Part shown: positions 3,397 through 53,140 of the stretch, piece after piece
How positions within the stretch are numbered: the first letter of the stretch is position 1
How the letters are laid out: the number at the start of each line of letters is the position of its first letter
Origin: Kiritimatiellia bacterium
GTDB taxonomy: Bacteria; Verrucomicrobiota; Kiritimatiellia; RFP12; UBA1067
Direction: 5' to 3'
Length of the DNA: 64,000 nt
NCBI GenBank assembly: GCA_050949565.1
Contig: JBMNFY010000017.1
Coordinates: forward strand, 1,824,001 to 1,888,000
Notes under the pieces: generated by a model
The model's input: the letters and a program-made list of their open reading frames with translations, nothing else
Told to the model about the DNA's origin: nothing
Databases searched by the model: none
Made by a program: the position numbers and the translations under genes

Positions 3397-4983
3397 CTAA
3401 CGCTCTTTCTCGCCCCACGAAGTATAGCCATTTTTGAAGAGCCACTCCGCAGCGCCAACGTGACCTTGTCGCGCGGCCTGTTTAAATAACTCGACCGCGC
3501 GGACATGGCTCATCTCGACTCCGCGCCCATATTCGTACAGGGTTGCCAGATTGTAAGCTGCGCTGGCGGCACCTTGATCAGCAGCGGCCTTGAACCACTT
3601 TGCGGCGAGGGCATGATCTTGAGGCACGCCCTCGCCCCGCAGGTAAAGCATGCCGAGATTGTTTTGCGCGGCGGGGACTCCAGCTTCGGCAGCGCGGCGG
3701 TAATGCTGTTCAGCCTGCGCGTAGTCCTTCGGTACTACGATCCCGCGGTAGTGAAAAGTGCCGAGCGCATGAATCGCGCGCGGGTTCGCCTGCTCCGCCG
3801 CCTTCGTGTACCAGTTGAAGGCGCGCTCATGGTCTTGTGGCACGCCGCGTCCCTCCTCATACATCTGCCCGATGAAAAACTGCGCCATCGCATGGCGCTT
3901 TTCGGCGGCTCTGGCGAACCAAGTGAGCGCCCTGCGGTTGTCTTGTTTGACACCGTCACCATCGCGGTAGAGCAGGCCAATGTTAACCTGTGCTTCGGTG
4001 TGCCCTTGGTTTGCGGCGCGCGCGAACCACAAGCCAGCCTCGCGCGGATTACGCGGTACGCCGCGCCCCCGGGCGCAGACAAAGCCATAGTTGAACTGGC
4101 CATCGGCATTGCCGGACTCCGCCGAGCGACGATACCAATTGGCCGCAGCGATTAAATCTTTTTCGGTTCCGCGTCCCTCCTGATAGAGCCAGCCGAGGTT
4201 GTTCATGGCGCTCGAATGCCCCTTCTCGGCGGCGCGCGTGTAGAGCACGAACGCCATGCCCTCATCCTTGGGCACGCCGCGTCCCTGCGCATAGAGCGCG
4301 GCCAGATTGTACTCGCCGTTGCGGTCTCCTTGCAGCGCAGCCTGCCGGAAATATTCGCCGGCCTTATCATCATCTTGCGGAACCCCCTGGCCGCGATAGT
4401 AGATAAGTCCCAGTGCGTTTTGCGCTAAGGCCTGGCCCTGTGCCGCAGCCTGCTGGTACCAGTCGCGTGCCTCTTCCGGCTGATTCAGATTAAGATCGCA
4501 GTCCAGCCCTACCAGATATTGAGCCAACGCGTTACGTTCCCGGGCGTGCGCGCGTATCAATGGCCGTCCCTCATTCAGATAACGCTCCCGCTGTTCGGCC
4601 GATAACGCGCAGAGCGGCTCTTGTGCGGCATGCACCGCCAGTAGAAAACGGAAAAACGTCTGGCCGGCATCGGCCATCTCCCGGACCTTTGCCACCGCCA
4701 CCAAAAAATCATCGGTGCTGCCCGCCGTTCGTGCGTTCACGAATCGCTCGACCGCGCCCCGGACCTCCTCCATCGCGGCCGCAGTCTCCTCGTCGGCGCG
4801 GACCACAGAAAACGTGAACACAAGCGCCGCGCTGGCGACCTTAAGAAGCGCGAGTCGCAAAGGGCGGCATGACCGCCGCCGGGCAAGCAGACGCTTGCTC
4901 CTCCCGATGTTCCGCAAGTAATGAAACCTGGAAATCCTAAATCCTGAATCCCAAATCCTAAATCCCAAAATCCTTCGCCTCAT
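3397..4983 (-). CDS. Sel1-like repeat exported protein
   Basis: About 10 repeats of AQxxLGxxYxxGxGVxxDxxxAxxWxxxAAxQG. The start is uncertain: ATG 4983 overlaps the upstream stop, and there is an alternative TTG at ~4860. Confidence 0.9.
   Translation of the reverse strand: MRRRILGFRIWDSGFRISRFHYLRNIGRSKRLLARRRSCRPLRLALLKVASAALVFTFSVVRADEETAAAMEEVRGAVERFVNARTAGSTDDFLVAVAKVREMADAGQTFFRFLLAVHAAQEPLCALSAEQRERYLNEGRPLIRAHARERNALAQYLVGLDCDLNLNQPEEARDWYQQAAAQGQALAQNALGLIYYRGQGVPQDDDKAGEYFRQAALQGDRNGEYNLAALYAQGRGVPKDEGMAFVLYTRAAEKGHSSAMNNLGWLYQEGRGTEKDLIAAANWYRRSAESGNADGQFNYGFVCARGRGVPRNPREAGLWFARAANQGHTEAQVNIGLLYRDGDGVKQDNRRALTWFARAAEKRHAMAQFFIGQMYEEGRGVPQDHERAFNWYTKAAEQANPRAIHALGTFHYRGIVVPKDYAQAEQHYRRAAEAGVPAAQNNLGMLYLRGEGVPQDHALAAKWFKAAADQGAASAAYNLATLYEYGRGVEMSHVRAVELFKQAARQGHVGAAEWLFKNGYTSWGEKER
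4932..4973. repeat. Heptamer tandem repeat (AATCCTA/AATCCCA/AATCCTG)
   Basis: aaatcctaaatcctgaatcccaaatcctaaatcccaaaatcc. Confidence 0.85.
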
Positions 4984-6040: not shown

Positions 6041-6517
6041 ATGGCCACAGCAAAGAAAGCAGCTCCTGCGAAAAAGGCTCCCGCGAAGAAGGCGGCAGCG
6101 AAGGCAGCTCCTGCTAAGAAGGCGACGCCTGCGAAGAAAGCGGTTGCGAAGGCTCCCGCGAAAAAAGCGGCTCCGGCCGCCAAGAAAGCTCCCGTGAAGA
6201 AGGCGGCAGCCCCGACGAAGAAAGCGGTCGCGAAGGCTCCCGTGAAGAAGGCGGCTCCTGCAGCGAAGAAGGCACCTGCCAAGAAGGCGGCTCCTGCGAA
6301 GAAAGCGGTCGCGAAGGCTCCCGTGAAGAAGGCGGCTCCGGCAGCGAAGAAGGCACCTGCCAAGAAGGCGGCTCCTGCGAAGAAAGCGGTTGCGAAGGCA
6401 CCGGCTGCCAAGAAAGCAGCTCCGGCGAAGAAAGCCCCCGCGAAGAAGGCAGCAGCCCCTGCTAAGAAGGCCCCTGCTAAGAAGGCCCCTGCTAAGAAGG
6501 CGGCAGCGAAGAAGTAA
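6041..6517 (+). CDS. Histone H1-like K/A/P-rich nucleoid protein
   Basis: 158 aa made almost entirely of AKKAAP/AKKAP repeats. RBS AAGGA upstream and a terminator downstream. Confidence 0.9.
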   Translation: MATAKKAAPAKKAPAKKAAAKAAPAKKATPAKKAVAKAPAKKAAPAAKKAPVKKAAAPTKKAVAKAPVKKAAPAAKKAPAKKAAPAKKAVAKAPVKKAAPAAKKAPAKKAAPAKKAVAKAPAAKKAAPAKKAPAKKAAAPAKKAPAKKAPAKKAAAKK

Positions 6518-18910: not shown

Positions 18911-19953
18911 ACTACTAAGGGGCAGGTAATTTGACCAACTGTTTCGCTAACTCCAGCGCATCCACGGGCCAGAAGCATTCGGGGCGGGGACGGTGGACGC
19001 CGGGCTGTCCGGCTTGGGGACGGCAGTTCAGAATGCAGTCGAGCCACTGGGCGGGCACGGCGTCCAGACCGTACACCGCGCCCAGCAACGCTCCGCAAAT
19101 CGCCGCGTTGGTGTCGGTGTCGCCGCCCCGCATGACTGTGTCGACAACGCCCACTTCCAGATCCGGGGCATTGAGCAGTTGCCACAGGGCGTTGCGGAAG
19201 GCGATCAACCCCCAGCCTTGTTGTCGCGTGTAATCGGCGGGCGGCGCTTCGGCGGCACCTTCGATGGTTTCCATGATCACCGGGGCGACCGTCATATCGG
19301 CGGCCCATTGCTTGATGCACTGGTAGAGCGTGGTGGCCTCGCAACCTGAAGCAATGGCGTGGGCAATCGCCATGGCAAAAAGCGCGTTCGCCTGAAGACA
19401 GATCGGATTGGGATGAGTCAGGGCGGCGTCCTGCCTGGCCCACTCGGCCACCGTCTCTAATGGATGGTTGGCACCGAAGATGCCCAAGGGGCTGATGCGC
19501 ATCATGGCGCCGTTGGCCTGACTGTGATGGTTCGGAGAACCCCGGAGAGCGGCAGACGTGGTTGTGCCACAGTCAAAGGGCGCGGAGTCGATCCAAAATC
19601 GATACGCCTCAAACGCCGCTTTCGGGTCATACGAACCAACTTTCACCAACATCCGTGCCAACAGCAATGCCATCTCCGAGTCATCGGTCGGCTGGCCGGC
19701 GATGGTGTTCCACGTGCCGCCATCGGCCAACTTCCGCACACCATCCGGGTAACGGTGGCGGATCATTTCAGATGACTCAAATTCAACCAAGCTACCGAGC
19801 GCATCCCCGGCAAGCTGTCCAAGCAGACAGCCTTGAGCACGGGACAACATGGCAGTGTTTTCGTATGGACACTTCGTTTTCATGATTTTTCACCTTCTGC
19901 GATCAACTACTGAAAGAATACCCATGACCACTAAGGGATAGGTAATTTGACCA
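18911..19953. repeat. 27-bp direct repeats (18911-18937 and 19927-19953) bracketing the ADP-ribosylglycohydrolase gene
   Basis: ACTACTAAGGGGCAGGTAATTTGACCA vs ACCACTAAGGGATAGGTAATTTGACCA (24/27 identical). Confidence 0.85.
18915..19883 (-). CDS. ADP-ribosylglycohydrolase family protein
   Basis: GDALG, GQPTDDSEMAL, ANGAMMRISP, ALTH and GGDTDTNAAICGALLGA motifs. Confidence 0.93.
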   Translation of the reverse strand: MKTKCPYENTAMLSRAQGCLLGQLAGDALGSLVEFESSEMIRHRYPDGVRKLADGGTWNTIAGQPTDDSEMALLLARMLVKVGSYDPKAAFEAYRFWIDSAPFDCGTTTSAALRGSPNHHSQANGAMMRISPLGIFGANHPLETVAEWARQDAALTHPNPICLQANALFAMAIAHAIASGCEATTLYQCIKQWAADMTVAPVIMETIEGAAEAPPADYTRQQGWGLIAFRNALWQLLNAPDLEVGVVDTVMRGGDTDTNAAICGALLGAVYGLDAVPAQWLDCILNCRPQAGQPGVHRPRPECFWPVDALELAKQLVKLPAP

Positions 19954-19989
19954 TCGCTCCCGGCACTACTGGGCCTGCAGGGATTGCGG

Positions 19990-20162
19990 CACGGGCGGGA
20001 CGCCCATGCCCACGGGCAAGATGCCCGTGCCACACCCGCAGGATCAGCAGTTCCGGCAGTGCCCGCCCAAAAAACTTTGTGCCCTTTGTGCCTTTGTGTG
20101 AGAAAAAAGGACAGAGCCATCCCCCCAAAAAAATCTGCGTACATCTACGGAATCTGCGGTTA
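19990..20162. repeat. Free REP pair plus two tandem-repeat modules
   Basis: cacgggcgggacgcccatgcc and cacgggcaagatgcccgtgccacacc (the same REPs as inside sbcD and the fumarase gene), then ctttgtgccctttgtgcctttgtg and aatctgcgtacatctacggaatctgcggtt. Confidence 0.85.
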
Positions 20163-22901
20163 ACCAAGCCCCCTGCATCCCGGCCCGGACAGTACGCTCC
20201 TGCCGCCGGTCTGGGGGGTGACTTGAATCTGTGTGCTGATCCGCTCTTTCAAGGCGGAGACGTGCGAAATGACGCCGATCAGCTTGCCGTCATGCTGGAG
20301 ACTCGCGAGGGTTTCCAGCGCGGTGTCGAGCGCCTCTTCGTCCAACGTGCCGAACCCTTCGTCCAGGAACAGTGAATCCACGCGGACATTCTGGCTTGCC
20401 ATGTGGGACAAGCCCAACGCCAGCGCGAGACTGACGATAAAGCTCTCCCCGCCAGAAAGGTTTTTCGTGGTGCGGATCTCTCCGGCCTGATAGTTGTCGA
20501 CTACATTGAGTTCCAAGGGCGACGTATCGTCCCGCGTCAGCAAGTAACGGTCGGTCATGTTCTGCAACTGACGGTTGGCGTGACCAATCATCATGTCGAA
20601 GGTCAACCCTTGCGCAAAATTGCGGTACTTTTTGCCGTCGGCAGAGCCGATCAGTTCGTGCAGATTCTCCCACCTGCGGCACTCGTTTTTCTGAGCTTCG
20701 ATCGCGGCCTTTTTGGTCTCCATCCGCTCTTTGGCAACCGTGTTCTCGTTCAGTTTGTGCTTGAGACCGGCAATCGTATCCCGCATCTCTTTCAGGGACT
20801 CCTCCTGCTCTTTGAATCGCGGTTCAAGCGCTTCCAGCGGCTCGTCGGTGAGCTTAAGGGCCAGCTCCTTGGCCAGATGCGCCTCCCGATCCTTCTGTCG
20901 CGCTTTTAACTCGGTTTGACGGTCGTCCAAGCCTTTGGCCGTGTCCGTCAACTCGGCTCTGCGTTCAGCGGAAAGCCTGGCCGCCAAGAACTGCTCTTCA
21001 TCTGCAAACCCCACCGGCGCGAACGCTGCGGAAAATTCAGTTTCAAGTTTTTTAAGTTCCGGTTCTTGGTGCTCGATGCGCCGTTTAAGCGATGCGGCAC
21101 GATCCTTCGCGGTGTTCCACTTTTGCTGGTGTTCATGGTGCCGTTCTCTGGCCTGCTTCTCGGCACTCTCGGCAGCGGCAACCGCTTGGTTTAAGCGGCG
21201 CTCCTCATCGTCCGGCTGTTTGTCGCCGTACAGCGACTGACGCTCCGCACTCGCGGCGGCGAGTCCCTTTTTCAAGGTCTCCAGTTGCTCCAACTTTTCG
21301 GCCAGAGCGGTGCCTTGGGTTTCGATGACCGCATCCAGCCGTTTGACCTCGCTATCGATGTCGGCGATCTGCCTCTCGATCTCTGCCTTCCTGCCAATCA
21401 GATCCTCGACTTTGTCGATCAGGCGAGACAACTCATCAATCCGTTGCTCGGTTTCATCGGGGAGCGGCACATTGCCTGCGGCGAAGGGGTGTTCGGTCGC
21501 GCCGCAGAGCGGACAGGGCTTGCCGTCTTGCAGCTTGGCGCGATGCGCTTCAAGCTCTGCGATCCGAGTCAGGAGCGCCATTTCGCGCAGCAGGGCGTCC
21601 TTCTCGGCACGGTACTCGCGCAACAAAGTGGTCGGCTTTTCATCCTGCGCATGTTCCTTGAGGAAGGCGTCCACGCCTTGCAACGCCTCGCACGCCTTGG
21701 ATCGTTTGTCCAGTTCCGCAAGCCGGGCTTTTTTGTCTGTGTCGATCTTGGCTGTATCTCTTTTGCAACCCGCTTCGCTATCCGCGACAGCTTTTTGCTG
21801 GTCGCCAAGCTTTTGATCCAGTGCGCGGACTTTCTGCAAGGTCGGCGCGGCCGCTTTCAGCGCTTCTTTTGCTTGGACGGTTTGCTGCTCAGCCGCTTGC
21901 AAGGTTTCGGCCTGTTCCTTGGCAGAGATTTCCAGTCCGGGCAGTGCCGCCTCTTCGGTTTTCAGGGCGGCTTGGTCAGCCGACTGCTGTTTGCGGGCGG
22001 CGGTGAGTGTGGCGTATGCGCCGTCCAGCGCGGCGGCACTCAAGGCGCGTCCTAGCTTTTCGCGATCCGGCTTGAACGCTTCGATTTCGCCCTGCAGCTT
22101 GTCTGCTTCGTCGGCCAGACTGACAATCTCCTTTTTCAGTCCGTCGATGAGGGTGAGCCAGGCGATGGCCTTCCCGGTGGCGGCTGACGTGGCGGCAAGC
22201 TCTGCCTCTTCCTTGCGCTTGTTTTCGAGTGTTTGCTCCAGCGCTTGCTCCTGCTCCGGTTCAAGAATCACGATGCCGGCCGTTTCAGCGCGGAGCAGGT
22301 TCAGCTTCTCCTGCTCTTCGCGCTGGCGCTCATGGACGCGGATGGATATCCGGCTGTAGATCTCCGTGCCCGTGATCTGCTCCAGAATCGGTGCCCGATC
22401 ATCGGGTGCTGCCTGCAGGAATGCGGCGAAACCGCCCTGCGCCAGTAGCATGGAGCGGGTGAAGCGGTCAAAGTCCATGCCGGTGGCCGTCGCGATCTGG
22501 TCGGCAACGCCTTTGATTTTGGATTCAAAAATCTCGCCGGAGTCGGCATCGGCAATTTCGTGCTTCGGGGCTTGGAGTTCGCCGTCCGGCTTCTTGCGCG
22601 CCCGGTGCTGGCTCCAGTGGCAGCGGTAGCGCTTGGACTGGGCTTCGAAGGTCACCTCGGCAAAACATTCGCCAGTCTGGCGGGACATGACTTCGTTGCC
22701 GCTCCGATTGACCCTGTCCAGGCGCGGCGTGCGTCCGTAAAGCGCGAGGCAAATGGCATCGAGGATGGTGGTCTTGCCCGATCCGGTGGGGCCGGTGATG
22801 GCGAAGATGCCGTCAGACACATAGGCCGGATGCGTCAGGTCGATTTCCCATTCGCCGACCAGCGAGTTCAGATTCTTGAAGCGTATTTGGCGGATCCTCA
22901 T
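20160..22901 (-). CDS. sbcC: Exonuclease subunit SbcC (Rad50-like)
   Basis: GPTGSGKTT, LAQGGF, central CPLC zinc hook, LSGGE, LFLDEGFGTLD and ISH motifs. Confidence 0.96.
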   Translation of the reverse strand: MRIRQIRFKNLNSLVGEWEIDLTHPAYVSDGIFAITGPTGSGKTTILDAICLALYGRTPRLDRVNRSGNEVMSRQTGECFAEVTFEAQSKRYRCHWSQHRARKKPDGELQAPKHEIADADSGEIFESKIKGVADQIATATGMDFDRFTRSMLLAQGGFAAFLQAAPDDRAPILEQITGTEIYSRISIRVHERQREEQEKLNLLRAETAGIVILEPEQEQALEQTLENKRKEEAELAATSAATGKAIAWLTLIDGLKKEIVSLADEADKLQGEIEAFKPDREKLGRALSAAALDGAYATLTAARKQQSADQAALKTEEAALPGLEISAKEQAETLQAAEQQTVQAKEALKAAAPTLQKVRALDQKLGDQQKAVADSEAGCKRDTAKIDTDKKARLAELDKRSKACEALQGVDAFLKEHAQDEKPTTLLREYRAEKDALLREMALLTRIAELEAHRAKLQDGKPCPLCGATEHPFAAGNVPLPDETEQRIDELSRLIDKVEDLIGRKAEIERQIADIDSEVKRLDAVIETQGTALAEKLEQLETLKKGLAAASAERQSLYGDKQPDDEERRLNQAVAAAESAEKQARERHHEHQQKWNTAKDRAASLKRRIEHQEPELKKLETEFSAAFAPVGFADEEQFLAARLSAERRAELTDTAKGLDDRQTELKARQKDREAHLAKELALKLTDEPLEALEPRFKEQEESLKEMRDTIAGLKHKLNENTVAKERMETKKAAIEAQKNECRRWENLHELIGSADGKKYRNFAQGLTFDMMIGHANRQLQNMTDRYLLTRDDTSPLELNVVDNYQAGEIRTTKNLSGGESFIVSLALALGLSHMASQNVRVDSLFLDEGFGTLDEEALDTALETLASLQHDGKLIGVISHVSALKERISTQIQVTPQTGGRSVLSGPGCRGLG

Positions 22902-22933
22902 CGCCAGCCCCTCCGCATAGCCGGGACATAAAA

Positions 22934-23193
22934 ATTGAGCGTTGAGCGTTGAGCGTTGAAAGTTTTAACGCAGAGACGCAGAGACGCAGAGATTTTTATG
23001 GGATGGCATCGTGACCGCCGCCGAAGGGAGGGACGAGCGTCTGCTCGTCCGCGGGCAAGCAGACGCTTGCCCCTCCCGGTGCTTCGCACTGAAATCTGAG
23101 AAACTATCCTTCCGCACGGCGGAAGGCGGCTCGTGGGGACACTCGCCCTCCAATGCCGCGCCTCAATCATGTCAATCATGTCAATCATGTCAA
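22934..23193. repeat. Stack of five repeat modules between sbcD and sbcC
   Basis: (TTGAGCG)x3, (ACGCAGAG)x3, a 52-bp REP doublet at 23026-23077, REP ggctcgtggggacactcgccctcc and (TCAATCATG)x3. Confidence 0.9.
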
Positions 23194-23215
23194 AAAAAAC
23201 GCATCCCGTCTTTCA

Positions 23216-24577
23216 TCAAAGCGCGTCGTCCTCGTCGAGCGACGCGACCGCTTCTTGATAAGTCCGCAGTAGCTCGGGCCGCTGTTCGTCAGGCACGTTG
23301 TGAGCGGCGAGGCAGCGCTCGAATACATCGTTTACGGTCAGATCATCGAGCGTTTCCTCTGTGTGGAGCCGTCCCAGCACGCGGTCGATGATACGGTTGT
23401 TTTTGACGCGGAGAATCTCTATTTGGGTATCGGCTGTCGCAGTCTCCAAACGTTCGCGCAGGTCACCGATGACTTCTTCGCCCTCGTAGACGACTTCGAG
23501 CCAGCTTGAAGCGTCCGTTGCCGACAACTCAAGGATGCGGCGCTCGATGTCGTCCCACTCACCTTTGACGCGCTCAAGCTTTTGAAACATCGGTGCGTCG
23601 ATTAGGCTGATGTGAGCTTTTGGCCGATTATCGAGGCCTTTGCAATCCCCCTTGCGTGCAGGTGTGGCACGGGCATCTTGCCCGTGTTTCATGGGCGGGA
23701 CGCCCATGCCACGAGGGGTTTTGCAAGGGTCTCTGGCGTCAGCCTTGTCTGCGTTCCTCTGTGGATAAAAATCGACCAGCACCACACTCTTCTGCTGTTT
23801 GGCCTCGCCGAATCCCATAGGCAGGGGAGAGCCGCTATATCGCATGGTTTCGGTGCTACTCACCATTTGCGGGATATGGAGGTGGCCGAGCGCCAGATAA
23901 TCAAAACTGGCGGGAAAACTTTGGGCAGTCACATGCGCCAGCGAACCCACATAGAGTTCGCGCACGCCATCGCCGTCGACCGTTTGTCCGCCTGCGGTAA
24001 ACAGATGCCCCATGCCGACGACGGGGATATCGCCCCCGAACTCCGCGCGTTTTTGTTCGGCCAGGGCAGTGACGGCGGCGTAGTGTGCGCGGATGCCGTC
24101 AGTCAATTTCCGCTCCTTGTCCTCGACACTCTCGCCGGCTTCCGCCGTGCGGATATCCCGGTCGCGGAGATAGGGCACGGCGCAGACGATCAGTTCCGGC
24201 GCGTCCTGCGCATTGCGGAGCACCAGCACCTCGTCTTCCAGGCAGTCAGAAGCATTGCCGACCACATGGACATTGAGGGCTTTGAGCAACTCTTTGGGGG
24301 CATTGAGGAACGACGGCGAATCATGGTTGCCCGCGATAACGACAACATGTCGGCAGTGCGAGGCAACCACCCGGCACAGAAAGCGGTAGTAGAGTTCCTG
24401 GGCGCGGTTGCTCGGTGTACTGGTGTCAAAGACATCCCCCGCCACCAGCAGCGCGTCGATCTCACGCTCCCGGATCGTCTCCGTCAGCCAAGCTAGAAAC
24501 GCCTCAAACTCCTCATAGCGTTTTCTGCCATAAAGCGTGCGGCCGAGATGCCAGTCGGATGTGTGGAGTATTTTCAC
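23216..24577 (-). CDS. sbcD: Exonuclease subunit SbcD (Mre11-like) with an in-frame repeat insertion
   Basis: HTSDWHLG, AGDVFD, AGNHDS, ALGHLH and YSGSP motifs. GTG start at 24577. Confidence 0.96.
   Translation of the reverse strand: MKILHTSDWHLGRTLYGRKRYEEFEAFLAWLTETIREREIDALLVAGDVFDTSTPSNRAQELYYRFLCRVVASHCRHVVVIAGNHDSPSFLNAPKELLKALNVHVVGNASDCLEDEVLVLRNAQDAPELIVCAVPYLRDRDIRTAEAGESVEDKERKLTDGIRAHYAAVTALAEQKRAEFGGDIPVVGMGHLFTAGGQTVDGDGVRELYVGSLAHVTAQSFPASFDYLALGHLHIPQMVSSTETMRYSGSPLPMGFGEAKQQKSVVLVDFYPQRNADKADARDPCKTPRGMGVPPMKHGQDARATPARKGDCKGLDNRPKAHISLIDAPMFQKLERVKGEWDDIERRILELSATDASSWLEVVYEGEEVIGDLRERLETATADTQIEILRVKNNRIIDRVLGRLHTEETLDDLTVNDVFERCLAAHNVPDEQRPELLRTYQEAVASLDEDDAL
23633..23733 (-). 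mobile_element. ~100-bp TIR-bounded palindromic element (MITE/RPE-like) inside sbcD
   Basis: GAGACCCTTGCAAAACCCC...REP pair...GGGGATTGCAAAGGCCTC. It encodes CKTPRGMGVPPMKHGQDARATPARKGDCK. Confidence 0.9.
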
Positions 24578-24585
24578 CGGGCATT

Positions 24586-24714
24586 CTACTTTTGCTCGCA
24601 GGTCGTTTTTTCGCCCCGGGCATGGTGATAGGCCTTGCAGGCTTTGCAGTCTCCGTGCCGCGGGCACCCCGGCCACGTGCAGGGGCAATCAGTTTTGATC
24701 GTTTTCTCGCTCAT
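24586..24714 (-). CDS. 42-aa Cys/His-rich putative metal-binding protein
   Basis: MSEKTIKTDCPCTWPGCPRHGDCKACKAYHHARGEKTTCEQK with RBS AGGAG. It ends 8 nt before the sbcD start and is missed by the ORF track. Confidence 0.75.
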   Translation of the reverse strand: MSEKTIKTDCPCTWPGCPRHGDCKACKAYHHARGEKTTCEQK

Positions 24715-24740
24715 ATCGGTTCTCCTAGTAGTTTTGCCGG

Positions 24741-24812
24741 TGGTGGATTTAGTGGACGTTGTGGACGCTGTTGACTTGGTGGACGCTTCAGAATCTTGTC
24801 CACGCTATCCAC
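24741..24812. repeat. 9-mer (GTGGAC-core) tandem repeats with an inverted partner
   Basis: gtggatttagtggacgttgtggacgctgttgacttggtggac ... gtccacgctatccac. Confidence 0.75.
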
Positions 24813-24880
24813 CCCTCTGGCTTCTCTTTGCCGCCTGTCGCCCCCAGACGTCGGTACCTGTCGCCCTCGATCACGTGTAC

Positions 24881-25240
24881 TCACACCGCCGAGGCGACGA
24901 TGCGGTTGTGTTCGTCGAGCCGCACGATTTTGGGGTGGTGGTCCGCGCACTCGTTCGCGTCAAGCTGGCACCAGACCATGACGATCAGGCGGTCGCCGAG
25001 GGTGCCCTTGTGGGCGGTCGCACCGTTCAGGCACGCCACGCCGCTGCCGCGCGGCCCTTTGATCGCGTAAGTCTCGAAACGTTCGCCGTTTTCCAGATTG
25101 GCGACCAGCAGCTTTTCGTAATTCAGGATACCGACGGCGTCCATCAAATCTTCATCGATCGTCAGGCTGCCTTCGTACTCCTTGTCGGCCTGTGTGACGC
25201 GCAAGTGGTGCAGTTTGGCTTTGAGTAAAGTGCAGAGCAT
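24881..25240 (-). CDS. panD: Aspartate 1-decarboxylase
   Basis: LKAKLH, YEGSLTID (G-S self-cleavage site), NGERFETY and LNGATAH motifs. Confidence 0.96.
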   Translation of the reverse strand: MLCTLLKAKLHHLRVTQADKEYEGSLTIDEDLMDAVGILNYEKLLVANLENGERFETYAIKGPRGSGVACLNGATAHKGTLGDRLIVMVWCQLDANECADHHPKIVRLDEHNRIVASAV

Positions 25241-25373
25241 AAAAATCCTTTTGGAAACGTAGTTACAGCATACGGCGAAGCCGCTTGCGATGCAAGAAGA
25301 GAGATTGTTGCAAAACACACGCCAACCCCGTATTCTATTGCCGTTGCGTAAAACCGATTCTTAGGAGAGAGAG

Positions 25374-26060
25374 ATGGCATTGAATGTGGTGAGAGAGATT
25401 GACGGGTGCGTGGCCGTGCGCCATGTGTTGATGAGTGTGTCGGACAAGAGTGGCCTGGAGACGTTTGTGCCCGGACTGATCGCCGCCTGTCCAGAGGTGA
25501 AAATCTATTCGACCGGCGGTACCTACACCGCCGTGCAGAAACTGCTCGGCCCTGAACGCGCCGCGCAACATTTGGTGGCAGTCTCGGACTATACCGGACA
25601 GCCGGAGATGCAGGGCGGACTGGTCAAAACCCTCGACTTCAAGATCTATCTGGGCTTGCTCAGCGAGACCTACAACGCGGATCACCAGCGCGATCTGACC
25701 CGTACCGATGCGGTTGCGATCGATATGGTCGTGGTGAACCTCTATCCCTTCCAGCAGACGGTCGCGCGCGAGGGCGTGACCCCAGAGGAGGCGCGCACGA
25801 ATATCGATATCGGCGGCCCCTGCATGGTACGCGCCTCGGCCAAGAACTACCTGCGTGTGGCTTCGGTGACCGATCCTGCGGACTACAGCGCGTTGCTCGA
25901 TGAGCTGACCGCCAACGGCGGTACGCTGGGCTTTGCCACGCGCCTCGCTCTGATGAAAAAAGCCTTTGCCCATACCGCGCAGTATGACACCGCGATTGCC
26001 GCCTTCTTTGCCGATGTTACGGAGGAGCAAGCGCGGAAGACGTATGACATGCACGCCTAA
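25374..26060 (+). CDS. purH: IMP cyclohydrolase (stand-alone PurH N-terminal MGS-like domain)
   Basis: SVSDKSGL, STGGT, GLVKTL, VNLYPF, IDIGGP, SAKN and HTAQYD motifs. The AICAR transformylase domain is absent. Confidence 0.88.
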   Translation: MALNVVREIDGCVAVRHVLMSVSDKSGLETFVPGLIAACPEVKIYSTGGTYTAVQKLLGPERAAQHLVAVSDYTGQPEMQGGLVKTLDFKIYLGLLSETYNADHQRDLTRTDAVAIDMVVVNLYPFQQTVAREGVTPEEARTNIDIGGPCMVRASAKNYLRVASVTDPADYSALLDELTANGGTLGFATRLALMKKAFAHTAQYDTAIAAFFADVTEEQARKTYDMHA

Positions 26061-26063
26061 ACC

Positions 26064-26936
26064 ATGATCGATCTGCACATCCATTCCACGCACTCGGATG
26101 GCTCCGACACGCCCGCACGCTTGGTTGAACTCGGGCGGCGGGCTGGCTTGCATGCGATGGCTCTGACCGATCACGATACGATGGCCGGCACTGAGGATTT
26201 TCTGGCCGCCTGCCGTGCGCACGGCATGACCGGCATCTCCGGCATTGAAATCAGCGTGGATGTCGATGGTGGCCCTGGTTCGCTGCACATCCTCGGTTAC
26301 GGCATGGATCCGCACCACCCGGCGATACATAAGAATCTCGGGTGGGTGCTTGACGGGCGCGCCTGGCGCAATGAGCGGATTGTCGAAAAGCTCAACGAAC
26401 TGGGCTTGGAACTGAATCTGGACGAGGTTCGCGCTTACGCCGGCGAGGATGTCGTCGCACGCCCCCATATCGCGCGGGCGCTGATCGGGCGCGGCTATGT
26501 CTCGACTGTGGCGGAGGCGTTCGACAAGTATCTCGCCAAGGGGCGTCCCGCGTACATCGACCGCTACCGCCTCAACCCGGAAGAGGGCATCAGCATGATC
26601 CGCGAGACCGGCGGCATCGCCGTCATCGCGCATCCCTTCACATGGGAGAATGACGACGCGCGTCTGGAGGCGGGCTTGCGCACGCTTCAGTCGTTCGGCC
26701 TCAACGGCATCGAGGCGATTTACTCTGAGTATACGCCGGAACAGACCGTGACGCTGCTACGCCTCGCCAAGCGCCTCGGGCTGTTGGTCACCGGCGGCTC
26801 CGATTACCACGGTCTGGCCAAACCCGACATCGCGCTTGGTCGCGGCTTCGGCGCACTCAGTGTGCCGGACACCTGCCTGCTTCCGCTGCTGGCCGCGCTT
26901 GGCCCCGATAACCCTTGGGTGGTCACGCCCTCTTAA
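26064..26936 (+). CDS. PHP-domain metal-dependent phosphoesterase (TrpH/YciV-like)
   Basis: DLHIHSTHSDG, TDHDT, GIEIS, HILGY, RPH, AHP and GGSDYHG motifs. Confidence 0.92.
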   Translation: MIDLHIHSTHSDGSDTPARLVELGRRAGLHAMALTDHDTMAGTEDFLAACRAHGMTGISGIEISVDVDGGPGSLHILGYGMDPHHPAIHKNLGWVLDGRAWRNERIVEKLNELGLELNLDEVRAYAGEDVVARPHIARALIGRGYVSTVAEAFDKYLAKGRPAYIDRYRLNPEEGISMIRETGGIAVIAHPFTWENDDARLEAGLRTLQSFGLNGIEAIYSEYTPEQTVTLLRLAKRLGLLVTGGSDYHGLAKPDIALGRGFGALSVPDTCLLPLLAALGPDNPWVVTPS

Positions 26937-26971
26937 CCCCTCACCCCCTTAACCCCTTACAGCCTCCCCCC

Positions 26972-27964
26972 ATGGACTGGACTGATACATTAGCCGAATT
27001 GATCCGACGCACCACGAGCGACCTGCCCGCCGATGCGGAGGCCGCGCTGTGCCGCGCTGTCGATGTGGAGTCGCCCGACTCGCAGGCCGCGCTGATCCTG
27101 CGCGCGCTTGTGGAGAACACCGCGCTTGCGCGCCAACAATCTACGCCGCTCTGCCAAGACACCGGCACGCTCACCTTTTTCTGGGAGGTGCCGCCCGGCA
27201 CCGATACCGCCGCGCTCGAACAAGCCGCGCGCAACGCGGTGGCGCGCGCCACCCACAACGGCTGGCTGCGCCGCAACACGATCGACACCTTGACGGGACG
27301 CTCGGTCGACAGCAATGTCGCCGAAGGTTGTCCGGTGTGCCACTTCGAGCAACGGGCGGCGGATGGAGAAGGCTCTTGCAAAACCCCTCGTAGCATGGGC
27401 GTCCCGCCCATGAAACACGGGCAAGATGCCCGTGCCACACCTGTACGCAAGGGGTTTTGCAAGAGCCCCGAAGGTCATGCGGCGGGAATCGAAGTCTGGC
27501 TGCTGCAGAAAGGCGGCGGCAGCGAGAACATGAGCCGCCAGTTCAGTCTGCCCGACGAAACGCTCGGAGCCGGACGCGACCTCGAAGGGGTGCGGCGTTG
27601 CCTGCTGCACGCGGTCTGGCAAACGCAGGGCTTCGGCTGTGCGCCCGGCGTGCTGGGCGTCTGCATCGGTGCCGACCGCGCCGAAGGGTTTCTCGTCGCC
27701 AAGCGCCAGTTGTTGCGTTCGCTTGACGATGCCGCGCCTGAACCTGAGTTGGCCGCACTTGAGCGGCGCGTACTGGAGGAGGCCAACGCATTGGGCATCG
27801 GTCCGATGGGCATGGGCGGCACCACCACGCTGCTGGGCGTCAAAATCGCTGCGCGTACCCGTCTGCCCGCCTCTTACTTTGTCACTGTGGCTTATCTCTG
27901 CTGGGCTTGCCGCCGGCGCGGCCTGCGCGTATCGTCCGACGGTTCGCTCCACTGGCTCAACTGA
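26972..27964 (+). CDS. Class I fumarate/tartrate hydratase, alpha subunit, with an in-frame repeat insertion
   Basis: PLCQDTG, KGGGSEN, GCAP, LGIGPMGMGG, PAS and CWACRR motifs. Confidence 0.92.
   Translation: MDWTDTLAELIRRTTSDLPADAEAALCRAVDVESPDSQAALILRALVENTALARQQSTPLCQDTGTLTFFWEVPPGTDTAALEQAARNAVARATHNGWLRRNTIDTLTGRSVDSNVAEGCPVCHFEQRAADGEGSCKTPRSMGVPPMKHGQDARATPVRKGFCKSPEGHAAGIEVWLLQKGGGSENMSRQFSLPDETLGAGRDLEGVRRCLLHAVWQTQGFGCAPGVLGVCIGADRAEGFLVAKRQLLRSLDDAAPEPELAALERRVLEEANALGIGPMGMGGTTTLLGVKIAARTRLPASYFVTVAYLCWACRRRGLRVSSDGSLHWLN
27371..27467 (+). mobile_element. 97-bp palindromic element with perfect 18-bp TIRs inside the hydratase alpha gene
   Basis: GGCTCTTGCAAAACCCCT (27371-27388) / AGGGGTTTTGCAAGAGCC (27450-27467). 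It encodes SCKTPRSMGVPPMKHGQDARATPVRKGFCKS. Confidence 0.92.
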
Positions 27965-27990
27965 TTCACTCCCTCATTTCACATTCACTT

Positions 27991-28590
27991 ATGATCACGC
28001 TTCACCATCCTTTCACCGAAACTGCTGTGCGTGCGTTGTGCGCCGGAGAGGCTGTGCGCGTGTCGGGTCGCGTCTGCACGGGGCGCGACCGTCTGCACAA
28101 GCATCTGGCCGAAGGCGGCGCGTGTCCGGCCGACCTGCGCGACGGCGCACTCTTTCACTGCGGCCCGGTGGTCGTCCCGCTTTCGCCCGATCCTGCGCAA
28201 CCGTCAGATGGGCGCGGCGGTTGGCGCGTAGTGGCGGCCGGCCCCACCACCTCGATACGCGAAGAACCCTACATGGCGCGGGTGATCGAGCGGTTCGGCG
28301 TGCGTGTCGTGATCGGCAAGGGCGGCATGGGCGAAGCCACGCGCGCGGCATGTGCGCGGTTCGGTTGCGTCTACCTGCAGGCGGTGGGCGGTGCCGCCGC
28401 CTTGATCGCGCAACGCATCAAGCGCGTGGCGCAGGTGCATTTCCTTGAGGAGTTCGGTGCCACCGAAGCGCTCTGGGAACTGGATATCGAGGGCTTGGAG
28501 GCCGTGGTCGGGATTGATGCCAGCGGGCGCAGCCTATACGATGAAGTACGTGACGCCTCGGCTATGCGCTTGCGTCGGCTGCTGGGGTAG
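27991..28590 (+). CDS. Class I fumarate/tartrate hydratase, beta subunit
   Basis: TGRD, HCGP, AGPTTS, IGKGGM and GGAA motifs. It follows the alpha subunit. Confidence 0.92.
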   Translation: MITLHHPFTETAVRALCAGEAVRVSGRVCTGRDRLHKHLAEGGACPADLRDGALFHCGPVVVPLSPDPAQPSDGRGGWRVVAAGPTTSIREEPYMARVIERFGVRVVIGKGGMGEATRAACARFGCVYLQAVGGAAALIAQRIKRVAQVHFLEEFGATEALWELDIEGLEAVVGIDASGRSLYDEVRDASAMRLRRLLG

Positions 28591-28609
28591 GGTGAGCCAA
28601 AACTTGGGG

Positions 28610-36783: not shown

Positions 36784-37129
36784 GGTAATCGGTCGGTGGT
36801 GGGAACATGCGAAGCTCGTGCGTTTCCTGTGAAAAGGGGAGCAGAGAGTCGGGCGCGGGCGTCCTCGCCCGCAACAGCGTGTCTTGCGCTTTCTGGTTTT
36901 ATCTGCAGATTTGCGCGGATTTTTTTATTTTGACCAAAGGAGGGGAGGGACGAGCGTCTGCTCGTCCGCGGGCAAGCAGACGCTTGCCCCTCCCGGCGCT
37001 CCGCGAGCCCGGACGCGCATCGGAATCACGAGCGGCCTTTCACAGAGCGGGCGGGGGCACCGCGCTCCCGCCCGCGCGCACACAAAACACGCACTCGACT
37101 CTCGTGCTCCCTGTCACTAACCGCTTACC
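36784..37129. mobile_element. MITE-like element 1 filled with REP/tandem-repeat cargo
   Basis: Ends GGTAATCGGTCGGTGGTGGG and CCCTGTCACTAACCGCTTACC. It contains the 52-bp REP doublet (36943-36994, identical to 23026-23077). Confidence 0.7.
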
Positions 37130-48394: not shown

Positions 48395-50374
48395 TCATGC
48401 AGCGTGAAAGCGGCTGGCGTTCGGCAACGGCATGTCCAGCAGATCGGCTAACGCACGCAGCAGTTCGGTTTCGTCCACGGTCAGCATGCCGTCGGCGCGC
48501 ATCACGAATGCGCAGGCGTTCAGCAGTTCGCCCTTAAAGAGTGGTGTGAGGCCATCAAGCCGTTGCACGGCGGCCTCCCACTGGGTCAGCGTGCAATCGC
48601 GCCGTGCCGGCATCGGCAGCCGGTCGACGCGGAAGGAGGTCGCGCGCGCCACACCTTCACGCCATGCTGCTTCGGCGGCGGCGTCATCGTGCGGCTGCCC
48701 CAGATAAGCCATCACGCCCAACACGGTCGCGGCCTCGGCCTGTACCCGCGCGGGCGGCAGCGGCTTGCCGTAGAAGCCGCGCCTCACGCTGGTCGACGAT
48801 AACGCGCGCTGCATGCGTCCGAGCAGCAGGACTTCGAACAGCGAGCGCTCATGGTCTGCATCCGCCAATTCGCGAGCCAGCGCTAGACAGGTCTCGCAAC
48901 CGGCGGACGGACGCTGCCGGACCCCCTCAACCGCCAGATCCAGCAGTTTGCGGCGTGCGGTGCGGTCTAAGCTCCGCAGCGCGTCGTACCAGCGTTCGGC
49001 AGCCGTGGCTAGCGCGGTTGTCTCTGTGACGGCGATCTGGCTGCGCTGACGTTGGCGCACGTCCTCATCTTCGCTCAGTAGCAGCCCGTAAAGCGCGGCG
49101 GCGGCATCGTCGGGGCGGACCAGTGTTTCGCGCAGACCGGGATCAAGCGTAGGCAATACCACGGTGGCCGTCGGAATTTCCGCCGCCTCGGACAACGCTG
49201 TGTCCGCCGCTGATGCCAGGCTCAGTTCTGAAGCGACTCCTGCCGCAGATGGAGGCACAGGCGGGGGTGCCGGTGGCGGAGGCGGCTCATTTCCTTTTGG
49301 TGGTTTGCGCCACGGCTTGAAGTTGCCCGTAAATTCGGGGTCCAACTGTTGGATACGCTCCAGTAGCGGCGGATGCGTGGCGAAGAGCTTGTCTACTGTG
49401 CCGGCCGAAAAGAGCAGGTGCGAAAGCTCGCTGCGGTTGGCACAGCGCATCTCGCTGCCATGTTGCGATGCGCCGATCCGCTTGAGCGCGCCGGCCAGTC
49501 CCATAGGATTACGCGTGAACTGCACGGCAGAGGCATCCGCCAGATATTCGCGCTGGCGCGACACCGAGGCCTGAATTAACCGTGCGAAAAGGACCCCTAT
49601 GCTGCCGATCACCCAGAGCGCCAGCCCGGAAAGGAACAGGATCAACAGAGCACCGCCGCCATTGCCTTTCTTATCGTCCGACGAGCGTGCGTAGCGCAAC
49701 GAGCGCATCAACTGGTAGCCCAGGATCGAGGTCACCAAGATGCCAAAAAGAATGCTGAGCAGCCAACAGTTGAGCCGCATGTCGCCATTTTTGATGTGAC
49801 TGAATTCATGTGCGACCACGCCATGCAGTTCTTCGCGCGACAGCCGTTCCAGCGCGCCGCGCGTCACGGCGATCGCCGCATTGTGCAGCGAGAAGCCTGC
49901 CGCAAAGGCATTGATGCCGCGCTCCTTGTCCAGTACGAAAACCCGCGGCACCGGCACGCCCGAAGCCAGTGCCACCTCCTCCACGATATTGAGCAGACGC
50001 CGTTCCAGAAACTCTTTGACATAACCGGGAGCGATCTCGCGACCGCCGGCCGAACGTGCCACCGCCGCGCCGCCCCCCGCCAGCGAGATGCGGCGATAGA
50101 GCGTACCGCCCCCGATGATCAGCGCGCTGATCCCGGCGGTCACCAACATCCAGTGCGGATCCCACGCGAACACCCGGATGCCGGCACGGTCTTGATCCAG
50201 CGTCTGCCGCTCCTCTGTTTCCTCCTCGTCACGCGACAGCTCCACCGCGAGCACCGCAATCGCTCGCGAGGCGAGGTAGAAGGCGCAGACAATCAACACC
50301 ACGGCTGCCGCGTAGTATACGAGCAACACGCGCGTCCGGCGGCGGGCGGCTTCCTGGCGGGCAAAGAAGGTCAT
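48395..50374 (-). CDS. M48 (HtpX-like) Zn metalloprotease, copy 1
   Basis: INAFAAG, AHEFSHIKNGD, SRQREYLAD and THPPLLERI motifs, plus a TerB-like C-terminus. Confidence 0.92.
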   Translation of the reverse strand: MTFFARQEAARRRTRVLLVYYAAAVVLIVCAFYLASRAIAVLAVELSRDEEETEERQTLDQDRAGIRVFAWDPHWMLVTAGISALIIGGGTLYRRISLAGGGAAVARSAGGREIAPGYVKEFLERRLLNIVEEVALASGVPVPRVFVLDKERGINAFAAGFSLHNAAIAVTRGALERLSREELHGVVAHEFSHIKNGDMRLNCWLLSILFGILVTSILGYQLMRSLRYARSSDDKKGNGGGALLILFLSGLALWVIGSIGVLFARLIQASVSRQREYLADASAVQFTRNPMGLAGALKRIGASQHGSEMRCANRSELSHLLFSAGTVDKLFATHPPLLERIQQLDPEFTGNFKPWRKPPKGNEPPPPPAPPPVPPSAAGVASELSLASAADTALSEAAEIPTATVVLPTLDPGLRETLVRPDDAAAALYGLLLSEDEDVRQRQRSQIAVTETTALATAAERWYDALRSLDRTARRKLLDLAVEGVRQRPSAGCETCLALARELADADHERSLFEVLLLGRMQRALSSTSVRRGFYGKPLPPARVQAEAATVLGVMAYLGQPHDDAAAEAAWREGVARATSFRVDRLPMPARRDCTLTQWEAAVQRLDGLTPLFKGELLNACAFVMRADGMLTVDETELLRALADLLDMPLPNASRFHAA

Positions 50375-50384
50375 GGCCGTTCAA

Positions 50385-50975
50385 TCAGAAGCGCACCTGC
50401 GGTGCCTGCCGTTCGGCGTCCGACTCCAGTTCCAGCGACTGCGCCGCCGCGAAGTTGAACATCGAGGCGATCAACGAGCTAGGAAACACCTCGCGGCGGG
50501 TGTTGTAGGCCATGACCTCGTCGTTGTAGGCCTGACGGGCGAAGGCGATGCGGTTCTCGGTGGAGGCGATCTCCTCCTGGAGCTGCATCATATTCTGGTT
50601 GGCCTTGAGGTCGGGGTACTGCTCCACCACCACCATCAGGCGGCCAAGCACACCGCGCAACGCGCCTTCAGCGCCGGCCAGCGCACGCATGGCCGCACCG
50701 TCGGTCGGCGCGGCGGCGGCAGCATTGGCGGCGGCGAACGCCTGGTTACGCGCCGCGATCACGGCTTCGAGCGTCTCGCGTTCGTGCTTCATATAGCCTT
50801 TGGCGGTCTCCACCAGGTTGGGGATCAGGTCATAGCGCCGCTTCAATTGCACATCGATCTGGGCGAACGCATTTTTGAAGCGGTTGCGCGCCTGCACCAA
50901 TCCGTTGTACACGCCGATTGCCCATCCGGCGAGCACCACCAAAACACCGATCACGATTAACAACGTCATGCTCAT
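50385..50975 (-). CDS. lemA: LemA family protein
   Basis: YNGLV, QIDVQLKRRYDLIPNLV, YPDLKAN and ENRIAFARQAYN motifs. Confidence 0.95.
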   Translation of the reverse strand: MSMTLLIVIGVLVVLAGWAIGVYNGLVQARNRFKNAFAQIDVQLKRRYDLIPNLVETAKGYMKHERETLEAVIAARNQAFAAANAAAAAPTDGAAMRALAGAEGALRGVLGRLMVVVEQYPDLKANQNMMQLQEEIASTENRIAFARQAYNDEVMAYNTRREVFPSSLIASMFNFAAAQSLELESDAERQAPQVRF

Positions 50976-51089
50976 ACATGCTTCCTTTCTGTTTGTGCTT
51001 TACCGGCGCACAAGAGTGAACCTCTCTCCTTACGGGAGAAAAATACCATTCCCGATCTTGCCGCGTCAAGGATGCCGCCGCATTTTCCG

Positions 51090-52970: not shown

Positions 52971-53074
52971 GGCCGTTCAACAAGAGGCGCACCTACGGTG
53001 TCTGCCGTTTGGTGTCCGGCCCCACCCCCAACGACTGCACCGCCGACCACGATTACCAACATCGTCGTGCTCAT
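52967..53074 (-). pseudogene. lemA: Internally deleted lemA remnant (35-aa mini-ORF)
   Basis: The leader and first ~30 nt resemble the lemA 5' end, and the last ~70 nt resemble the lemA 3' end and spacer. Confidence 0.85.
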
Positions 53075-53140
53075 GCAGGCTCCCTTTCTGTTTACGCTTT
53101 ACCGGCGCACAAGAGTGGCAACCGGAAAGCGGTAGAATAA

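Follow-up and report, generated by a model that had tools for sequence, protein, structure and literature searches.

The in-frame landing of a palindromic element inside a gene is an already known kind of event; inserts of this kind are known, whereas their mover and origin usually are not. As described in the parts of the literature drawn on here, type I prokaryotic MITEs, which derive from insertion sequences (ISs), are shorter than 500 bp, carry TIRs, are flanked by target duplications, fold into a stable hairpin, are mostly intergenic and have a cognate IS, and in-frame fusions produced by their intragenic copies are not unusual (Minnick 2024, PMC10969869). QMITE2 of Coxiella burnetii has TIRs and DRs and encloses a GTAG REP, its shorter copies are REP-like and some copies lie in frame in ORFs (Wachter et al. 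2018, PMC5896051), while the Rickettsia palindromic elements (RPEs) are found in frame in unrelated housekeeping genes whose products are apparently functional (Ogata et al. 2000, 2002, via PMC10969869 and PMC3733652). In Opitutus terrae and other organisms, intragenic GTAG/GTGG REP dimers add 20-30 residues to ORFs, often those of DNA repair genes, the GTGG tag being described for the GTAG-20 family of O. terrae (Di Nocera et al. 2013, PMC3733652); finally, in REPtrons, doublets with a GTAG/GTGG tag and a short G+C stem flank a Y1 transposase, the RAYT or TnpA-REP (Quentin et al. 2018, PMC6006769). A literature search with most subscription journals outside its coverage returned no REP doublet inside IS ends and no repeats of Kiritimatiellia.

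The present analysis concerns a 64,000-nucleotide stretch of DNA (the window) from a Kiritimatiellia-like genome, 92% complete and here called G000, in which a sequence-only reading had seen a protein-invading palindromic element inserted into sbcD and into a fumarate hydratase gene. We consider it probable that the element is a non-autonomous DDE transposon (a MITE), predicted to move in trans via a resident IS5/IS1182-like transposase and tolerated where it falls in protein loops.

The two insertions

Both insertions in the window are members of one family of 101-bp MITEs whose TIRs are 20 bp long and whose target duplication is 4 bp; the two copies of about 100 bp seen earlier are indeed present, though the coordinates given for the hydratase copy were 2 bp short at each end. 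This copy lies in the fumarate hydratase alpha gene without breaking its frame, at positions 27369..27469 (+), and has 4 differences from the family consensus. Its left TIR (27369..27388, +), the same end as that of a 1.65-kb IS, contains the perfect 18-bp repeat already noticed in the sequence; its right TIR lies at 27450..27469 (-), and between the two is an inverted REP doublet (27390..27438; arms 27390-27412 and 27416-27438) with outward-facing GTAG/GTGG tags, of the REP type found around a RAYT gene on contig C10. The left target-site copy is GGAG (27365..27368, +) and the right one, at 27470-27473, is GAAG (3/4 match), the empty fumarase site in two other genomes (G001 and G003) carrying a single GGAG. 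The sbcD copy, also in frame (23633..23733, -; REP doublet 23664..23712), has 8 differences from the consensus and its flanking 4-mers agree at 2/4 positions, the duplication being decayed or absent, so that neither window copy has a perfect target duplication. The two copies differ at 10/101 sites, form a 102-nt inverted pair with 91% complementarity and, as the sequence-only reading had it, share a reading frame and encode the peptide that it described. The REP pair at 19990..20036 (-) is TIR-less and intergenic, as had been stated, and is of the same REP type as the MITE core; it is a tandem in the same orientation, unlike the inverted doublet of the MITE. The minimum-energy fold of the element is an unbranched rod (-64.6 kcal/mol, z -10.0), and the branched hairpin proposed earlier has to be given up, since for the family consensus the rod is the ground state (-71.9 versus -62.8 kcal/mol) and the branched form is 9 kcal/mol worse. 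An Rfam scan of 19000-28600 gave no match over the elements and one chance match outside them.

Host genes and the insert-bearing loop

SbcD (453 aa; 23216..24577, -) matches PF12320/PF00149 and TIGR00619, the latter above cut-off and as the sole match in G000; its partner gene sbcC (913 aa; 20160..22901, -) is an open frame with AAA_23 and Walker B matches. The other host is the alpha subunit (330 aa; 26972..27964, +) of a two-subunit Fe-S fumarate hydratase, matching PF05681, again as the sole match in G000, and TIGR00722 above cut-off, and is followed by the beta subunit gene (27991..28590, +; PF05683). The earlier statement that the host motifs are intact holds for all those listed, in SbcD (SDWH 7, GDVFD 47, GNHD 83, GHLF 190, GHLH 231) and in the hydratase (CQDTG 61, KGGGSEN 180, GCAP 222, CWA 310); the fumarase alignment shows no variation in three hydratase Cys or in the KGGG.EN core. 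Both hosts are single-copy in G000 and under purifying selection (pN/pS 0.017/0.091 and 0.027/0.20), which rules out that they are pseudogenes. Orthologues without the DNA element are also without the peptide, and neither of the two outcomes that the sequence-only reading had named as contrary to it (the peptide in orthologues lacking the palindrome; mostly frameshifting coding copies, with both hosts unexpressed pseudogenes) was found. Since sbcD was found in just 1/6 same-genus genomes, its empty allele was taken from the protein database, where a near-identical protein (P0007) is exactly 35 residues shorter.

In an AlphaFold model of the fumarase alpha subunit (pTM 0.80; best structure match 7xky; a single-sequence run with pLDDT 36 was discarded), the insert, at residues 131-168, lies between two strands with pLDDT <50, and the loop holding it is thus predicted to be disordered. 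The same loop carries unrelated extra peptides in 7/16 orthologues and is short in 8/16. Because the loop tolerates extra residues, the hosts can survive without removal of the insert, and of the options offered by the sequence-only reading it is toleration that stands; the in-frame copies also point out where SbcD and the two-subunit fumarase have loops able to take up 35 further residues.

Copies, target sites and reading frames

The genome contains 95 near-full MITE copies and 12 more at the end of the 1.65-kb IS. Among the 89 copies with both TIRs (11 IS ends included), 53 are 101 bp long and 35 have an exact 4-bp duplication (shuffled mean 0.93, maximum 5); a 5-bp duplication is present in 7 copies, and the duplications lie exactly outside the TIRs. 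The copies have a median of about 5-6 differences from the consensus (51 copies, two of them misaligned). On calls made by a home-made dicodon gene caller, 119/130 TIR-bearing clusters are intergenic in a genome with 79% coding DNA (binomial P about 1e-53), and 11/130 touch a gene; seven copies are internal to intact, unrelated genes and are spread over four frames (3/2/1/1; P = 0.68 for the observed skew). Since the element can be read without a stop in five of its six frames, a frame shared by the two window copies is expected one time in five, and their agreement is a matter of chance; an element that invades proteins in a preferred frame, as the sequence-only reading had envisaged, is not what this distribution describes. 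Its suggestion of a functional Cys-closed loop was likewise rejected, the Cys codons being letters of the TIR and the second Cys being absent from one of the three internal copies in that frame, the FtsX/MacB copy, in both G000 and the related genome G004. The element is not a protein-seeking peptide module.

An insertion adds 101 + 4 = 105 bp, that is, 35 codons, and empty sites of exactly this length are found in the SbcD protein mentioned above and in a GH42-like gene of genome G002; an Eco57I-type host has no orthologue in genomes G001-G005, and none of 66 external loci provided a clean empty site for the G000 insertions. When 11 near-full G004 matches were tested against G000, 3 were shared, 1 was empty, 5 were unmapped and 2 lay at an edge. 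That insert length is selected to be a multiple of three was considered and rejected, as four 133-bp variants and a 69-bp sister element have also spread (net 137 and 73 bp, if their duplication is 4 bp).

The parent IS and the proposed origin of the core

The TIR of the MITE is shared by the 1.65-kb IS, present in G000 as eleven copies of at least 98% identity and one of 89%, with a 4-5-bp duplication, read by eye, at 6/11 copies. Its 371-aa transposase frame is intact and near-identical in 9 of the 12 copies and diverged in 1; it passes the Pfam cut-offs of DUF772 and DDE_Tnp_1 and stays below those of the IS1182 model NF033551 (90.4 bits versus 270) and of the IS5 models (69.9/140 and 63.5/110), so that the IS is filed as IS5/IS1182-like only. 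Each end of the IS is a hairpin module composed of the TIR, a core and a degenerate inner copy of the TIR, and the MITE consensus corresponds to the downstream end with the inner repeat exchanged for a full TIR. The related IS of genome G035 (83% aa) shares this inner repeat, with another core at both ends, and free 69-bp elements with this ancestral type of core occur in G298 (two, one with a 4-bp duplication) and in G295 (one, degenerate). In G000 the core is instead a REP pair, of the type that surrounds a resident RAYT. With REPs defined by the GTAG/GTGG tag beside a short G+C-rich palindrome (PMC6006769), the genome holds 475 arms, and the RAYT gene on contig C10 (PF01797), whose frame is interrupted by an in-frame TGA, has arms on both sides with about 2 differences per arm; none of 24 other RAYT loci carries a MITE-type arm at up to 3 mismatches. 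The transposase with matching TIRs and the REP-flanked RAYT for which a search had been suggested are therefore both found in G000, and the idea of a MITE enclosing a REP pair is supported, the doublet lying between TIRs shared with the IS.

A history that would account for these elements starts from a parent IS whose ends, to judge from their sequence, were already hairpin modules of TIR, core and degenerate inner TIR copy; in the G000 lineage a RAYT-type REP doublet would then have replaced the core of the downstream end. Since the inner repeat and the upstream TIR are direct repeats of each other, a deletion between the two would remove the transposase and leave TIR, core and TIR, that is, the MITE, whose insertion would produce a target duplication of 4, sometimes 5, bp. 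Because 105 bp is a whole number of codons and only one of the six frames is closed, an insertion in a gene can be read through; coding insertions would nearly all have been purged or avoided, as their distribution suggests, and the survivors would be those in loops or termini accepting extra residues, where the 35 residues probably remain as a disordered, function-less loop.

Alternative explanations

The genome G035 contains REP-bearing MITEs, yet in the single IS assembled from it the core is of the ancestral type; the events may therefore have come in another order, and the IS end of G000 could have gained its doublet from a MITE. Such a reverse history, in which the doublet first entered a free MITE of the 69-bp type and the downstream end of the IS acquired it later by recombination at the shared TIR and inner-repeat homologies (or, in a variant, the IS end module moved on its own and template switching turned its inner repeat into a perfect one), is a possible reading that we nevertheless rather doubt. 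It would agree with the MITE copies being more diverged and common to G004 while the IS burst is recent (at least 98%), and with a free copy (C8:228076) that ends in inner-repeat-like sequence; against it, the inner repeat in G000 matches the degenerate one of the G035 and G298 IS ends and not a decayed MITE TIR, a single deletion recipe accounts for the 101-bp elements as well as the 69-bp ones, and the REP-bearing IS end is also found at 4/66 external loci (L093, L104, L115, L139). That the 101-bp unit is instead a REPIN moved by a RAYT, its outer repeats being incidental, is very improbable: the REP-doublet core, the existence of a cognate RAYT locus and the 119/249 REP clusters without TIR speak in its favour, but Y1/HUH enzymes are not known to make target duplications, whereas those observed, exactly outside the TIRs, are a DDE signature; moreover, the unit has the TIR of the IS, and the C10 RAYT carries its in-frame TGA. 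This reading may apply to the TIR-less REPs.

Selection on the inserted sequence, either as an exapted Cys-closed peptide module or as a hairpin acting at the RNA level (stability, processing) in or between genes, seems unlikely. It could draw on the very stable fold, on the position of 65/95 copies between co-oriented genes, often at most 30 bp from a stop or start, and on the low divergence of copies shared with G004: five internal inserts differ at 3 of about 510 sites, and intergenic shared copies, in a sample chosen from best hits, at 6/1312, the same loci diverging by 4.3% in intergenic DNA and 7.2% at third positions. An unbiased 0.68-Mb alignment gave 9/302 sites in 3 copies (0, 1 and 8 differences), and since the low divergence extends to non-coding copies and to synonymous sites (1/125 in the five inserts, versus a host pS of 0.055-0.20), it does not indicate selection on the peptide; there are, furthermore, four frames, a copy without the Cys and no orientation bias (34 vs 31). 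The divergence is a mosaic, third-position values ranging between windows from 0 to more than 0.3, and the two empty sites detected had 86-93% flanks, which fits recombination importing diverged, element-free DNA. The inserts shared with G004 vary less than would be expected of a freely drifting loop. As for removal of the insert from the RNA or the protein in an intron- or intein-like manner, leaving the mature enzymes unchanged, it is scarcely credible, even if a near-perfect hairpin brings the element ends together and both hosts are single-copy in a genome that is 92% complete. For both genes, host sequence continues into the element in contigs of RNA libraries (4 runs, 4 studies; DNA carry-over possible), and among the 10 joints listed there is no element-skipping one; coming from RNA-library contigs only, this is weak evidence. 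Coverage gaps in these data carry no weight, and expression levels cannot be ordered by contig depth. Against removal stand also the lack of an Rfam match over the element, a peptide of 35 residues read in several frames and the loop tolerance that by itself accounts for host survival.

Comparison with known systems

Given a tolerated MITE, the results show neither a new peptide module nor a new splicing route; what is identified here is the parent IS, a sister MITE with the ancestral core, the REP donor locus and empty alleles, and the birth of a MITE and a hand-over of REPs between two transposition systems become testable. It is a speculative and unlikely extension that ISs of this family have a ready-made MITE at either end, shed by one deletion, and that in one lineage the module took up the RAYT REP doublet, so that a hairpin of an HUH system would be spread by a DDE transposase and both enzymes could act on it, inserted copies being held nearly unchanged between species, even in genes, by hairpin selection or by a conversion-like spread of filled alleles.

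As far as the consulted parts of the cited papers describe these systems, the 101-bp element shares all the traits listed above for type I MITEs, and differs from them in being one IS end module rather than fused long left and right ends, and in its REP-doublet core. Like QMITE2, it is a MITE with TIRs, an enclosed REP and some in-frame copies in ORFs; QMITE2, however, is 150-190 bp long with 7-11-nt DRs, and no autonomous partner is named in the part of its description covered here (PMC5896051), whereas in G000 an IS is present together with a RAYT whose REPs are of the same type. The RPEs are likewise palindromic and in frame in intact, unrelated genes (here, the seven internal copies), but nearly half of them lie in ORFs and encode a conserved peptide; a large ORF share with one conserved peptide was not found in G000 (11/130 clusters touching a gene, frames 3/2/1/1), and the mover is identifiable. 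The REP dimers of O. terrae, from the same phylum-level lineage, are also coding inside ORFs; compared by description, they are without TIRs or target duplication, unlike the MITE. The C10 locus shares with REPtrons the tag, the stem and the doublets on both sides of a Y1 transposase; unlike REPtrons, the MITE has its doublet travelling inside DDE ends.

The two copies in the window and their host genes

Two copies of the 101-bp element, a MITE with 20-bp TIRs around a REP-doublet core, lie in frame in sbcD (23633-23733, minus strand) and in the alpha-subunit gene of a fumarate hydratase of the two-subunit Fe-S type (27369-27469, plus strand), their ends being set by the family; they form an inverted pair (102 nt, 91% in the window repeat comparison) and differ at 10 sites. 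The sequence-only reading was right that SbcD and fumarate hydratase carry the same in-frame peptide and that the motifs of both hosts are intact; intact partner genes (sbcC and that of the fumarate hydratase beta subunit) adjoin both hosts, each of which is single-copy in the genome (G000, 92% complete), and no class II fumarase scores above the model cut-off in this 92% of a genome. Between G000 and its relative G004, host pN/pS is 0.017/0.091 and 0.027/0.20 by crude counts. Host-element junctions are crossed at both genes in RNA-library contigs from four studies, and none of the ten listed contig joints skips an element, weak evidence in both cases, as such contigs may include DNA. The branched hairpin once proposed for the whole element gives way to a predicted unbranched rod (z -10.0); the REP pair at 19990-20036 is indeed present, in a tandem arrangement unlike the inverted doublet of the MITE.

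Repeats of other families crowd the sbcC-sbcD gap: a run of heptamers, a 9-mer tandem and a palindrome of 52-65 bp that recurs in the window (coordinates 22931-23202, 2471-2534, 36940-37004 and 4851-4915). The window also holds a direct repeat, 300 bp or longer (59553-59852 and 62550-62849, 100% identical, spacing 2,997 bp), a duplicated block (48395-53117, 80-89%, ~2.6 kb) and an Ala/Lys/Pro-rich tandem repeat region (6062-6517), which from its composition we take to be histone-H1-like.

The MITE family and its parent insertion sequence

Genome-wide BLASTN of the element gave 317 HSPs in G000, 297 non-overlapping and 107 near-full; TIRs are recognisable at both ends in 89 of these 107, and 53 of the 89 are 101 bp long. 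An exact 4-bp duplication flanks 35 of the 89 copies (mean 0.93 and at most 5 across 1000 shuffles), while a 5-bp one flanks 7; at a length of 101 bp plus the 4-bp duplication, an insertion usually adds 105 bp, and the net length is divisible by three in 30 of the 35. Every MITE feature open to testing is found in the 101-bp element, which was matched in 17 of 41 related genomes (G000 counted in); an exact-pattern search of a species-genome collection returned 66 stretches, nearly all labelled Kiritimatiellia, Lentisphaerae or Verrucomicrobia, labels from which we infer the host lineage. Variants of 133-134 bp with three REP arms and the same TIRs occur at C16:113594, C17:919192, C17:994287 and C8:53548 of G000; at C1:268007-268373 six doublets stand in tandem, the array closing with a TIR.

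Twelve of the 107 near-full matches represent the downstream end of an IS 1,650 bp long, present in eleven copies at least 98% identical and one at 89%; the transposase with matching TIRs that the sequence-only reading suggested looking for is present, nine copies encoding a near-identical intact 371-aa protein with DUF772 and DDE_Tnp_1 domains, whose scores against the IS1182 and IS5 models stay under the cut-offs. The MITE consensus is identical to the final 102 bp of the IS, save that an inner TIR copy, degenerate in the IS, is a full TIR in the MITE. A homologous IS of the relative G035 (83% aa) has the same inner repeat and a different palindromic core at both ends, the upstream end of the G000 IS keeps a worn form of that core, and several further relatives' ISs have terminal hairpins or plain ends and no REPs; the REP doublet therefore reads as a later replacement at one IS end. 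Since the inner repeat is co-directional with the upstream TIR, deletion between both would leave TIR, core and TIR; if MITEs arise by this route, a sister MITE that holds the ancestral core should exist. Such a sister was found by pattern search in one of 151 genomes (G298), and follow-up gave free 69-bp copies there (two, one with a 4-bp duplication) and in G295. The doublet may have gone first into the IS end or first into a free MITE: G035 has REP MITEs but an ancestral-core IS. IS-end pairs ~350-500 bp apart (L265, G298:C9; L266, G035:C4) look like larger derivatives of this IS with internal deletions; in four database proteins (P0009-P0012; two are subunits of type I methylases) the C-terminal peptide is read from the IS end, and the full IS appears to have truncated them.

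A RAYT flanked by these REPs was also among the things to look for, and the doublet arms do match REPs on both sides of the RAYT on contig C10; none of 24 other RAYT loci has the MITE's REP arm, many having their own tagged hairpins. At C10:219031-222747 (L005, L226) the RAYT domain, flanked by REP doublets to the left and right, is in frame within an MmeI-like methyltransferase gene, whose RAYT part contains a TGA. Related RAYTs are in frame with restriction-modification domains in five of seven long frames scanned from relatives (L234, L235, L243, L244, L246). In L233 and L236 a RAYT domain is in frame with a pyruvate-formate-lyase-like protein and with a GNAT acetyltransferase.

Invasion of proteins or tolerance by loops

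The view of the element as one that invades proteins, adding a cysteine-closed module in a fixed frame, is not borne out. The 475 REP arms of G000 form 249 clusters, of which 130 contain one or more TIRs; by a home-made dicodon gene caller, 119 of these are intergenic (IS ends counted), 7 gene-internal and 4 at a C-terminus, in a genome 79% coding, and the coding share, 11/118, is far below the ~76% expected under free tolerance of in-frame insertion. Five of the six frames of the element are open, and the seven internal copies use four of them: SbcD, fumarase and an FtsX/MacB permease have the frame of the window copies, a GH42-like protein and an alpha/beta hydrolase share a reverse frame, and the Eco57I-type methylase and second FtsX permease each have a frame of their own. 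The skew (at least 3 of 7) has P = 0.68. Orientation is likewise unbiased (34 with versus 31 against, among 65 copies between co-oriented genes), and the flanks have 39% G+C, the genome 60%. The conserved cysteines, earlier offered as a possible functional loop, are encoded by TIR letters; in G000 and G004 alike, the second is missing from the FtsX/MacB copy. At C13:15121, C2:17611 and C11:6411 of G000 the C-terminus of a host protein is provided or lengthened by a MITE copy, hosts including a tRNA-guanine transglycosylase and a Fer4/ParA-like ATPase.

Five internal inserts common to G000 and G004 show 3 differences in ~510 sites, with 1 synonymous change in 125 sites against a host pS of 0.055-0.20; shared intergenic copies differ at 6 of 1312 sites, in a sample drawn from best hits, and an unbiased 0.68-Mb alignment holds only three shared copies, with 0, 1 and 8 differences. 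Nothing in this pattern singles out the peptide. The two genomes diverge in a mosaic fashion, two filled/empty differences have flanks at 86-93%, and the simplest reading would be recombination from element-free lineages, unable to replace the element without deleting it.

Empty sites are seen for three hosts: P0007, an SbcD with 394 identities over 416 aligned residues, lacks precisely 35 residues at the site, the fumarase genes of G001 and G003 show one GGAG in place of the GGAG, element and GAAG of G000, and exactly 105 bp are absent from the GH42-like gene of G002. Among 16 fumarase orthologues, G004 shares the insert; in seven the same loop holds different extra peptides (tandem heptamers in G001 and G003), and in eight it is short. 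In an alignment-based AlphaFold model (pTM 0.80), which matches the M. jannaschii enzyme 7xky, residues 131-168 fall below pLDDT 50 between two strands. In E. coli SbcD numbering, the SbcD insert falls between residues 261 and 269. A second permissive hotspot is the variable loop of an exosortase-like gene (L253:403-2211 on G000 C15, L085, P0014), occupied by a heptamer-derived peptide in G000 and by a partial MITE copy in relatives.

Comparison with known systems

The literature search found no account of IS ends that contain a REP doublet, of a MITE arising from an IS end module or of these repeats in Kiritimatiellia. In published work, in-frame fusions of MITEs are termed not unusual, with RPEs, the Rickettsia palindromic elements, as the extreme case (PMC10969869), intragenic REP dimers are known, DNA repair genes of O. 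terrae being among the hosts (PMC3733652), a Coxiella MITE with a GTAG REP inside is described (PMC5896051) and fusions of repeats with ORFs are reviewed (PMC3184786). The observation is real and well explained, and the element belongs to a kind already known; its feature of most interest is that the origin of the MITE can be traced.
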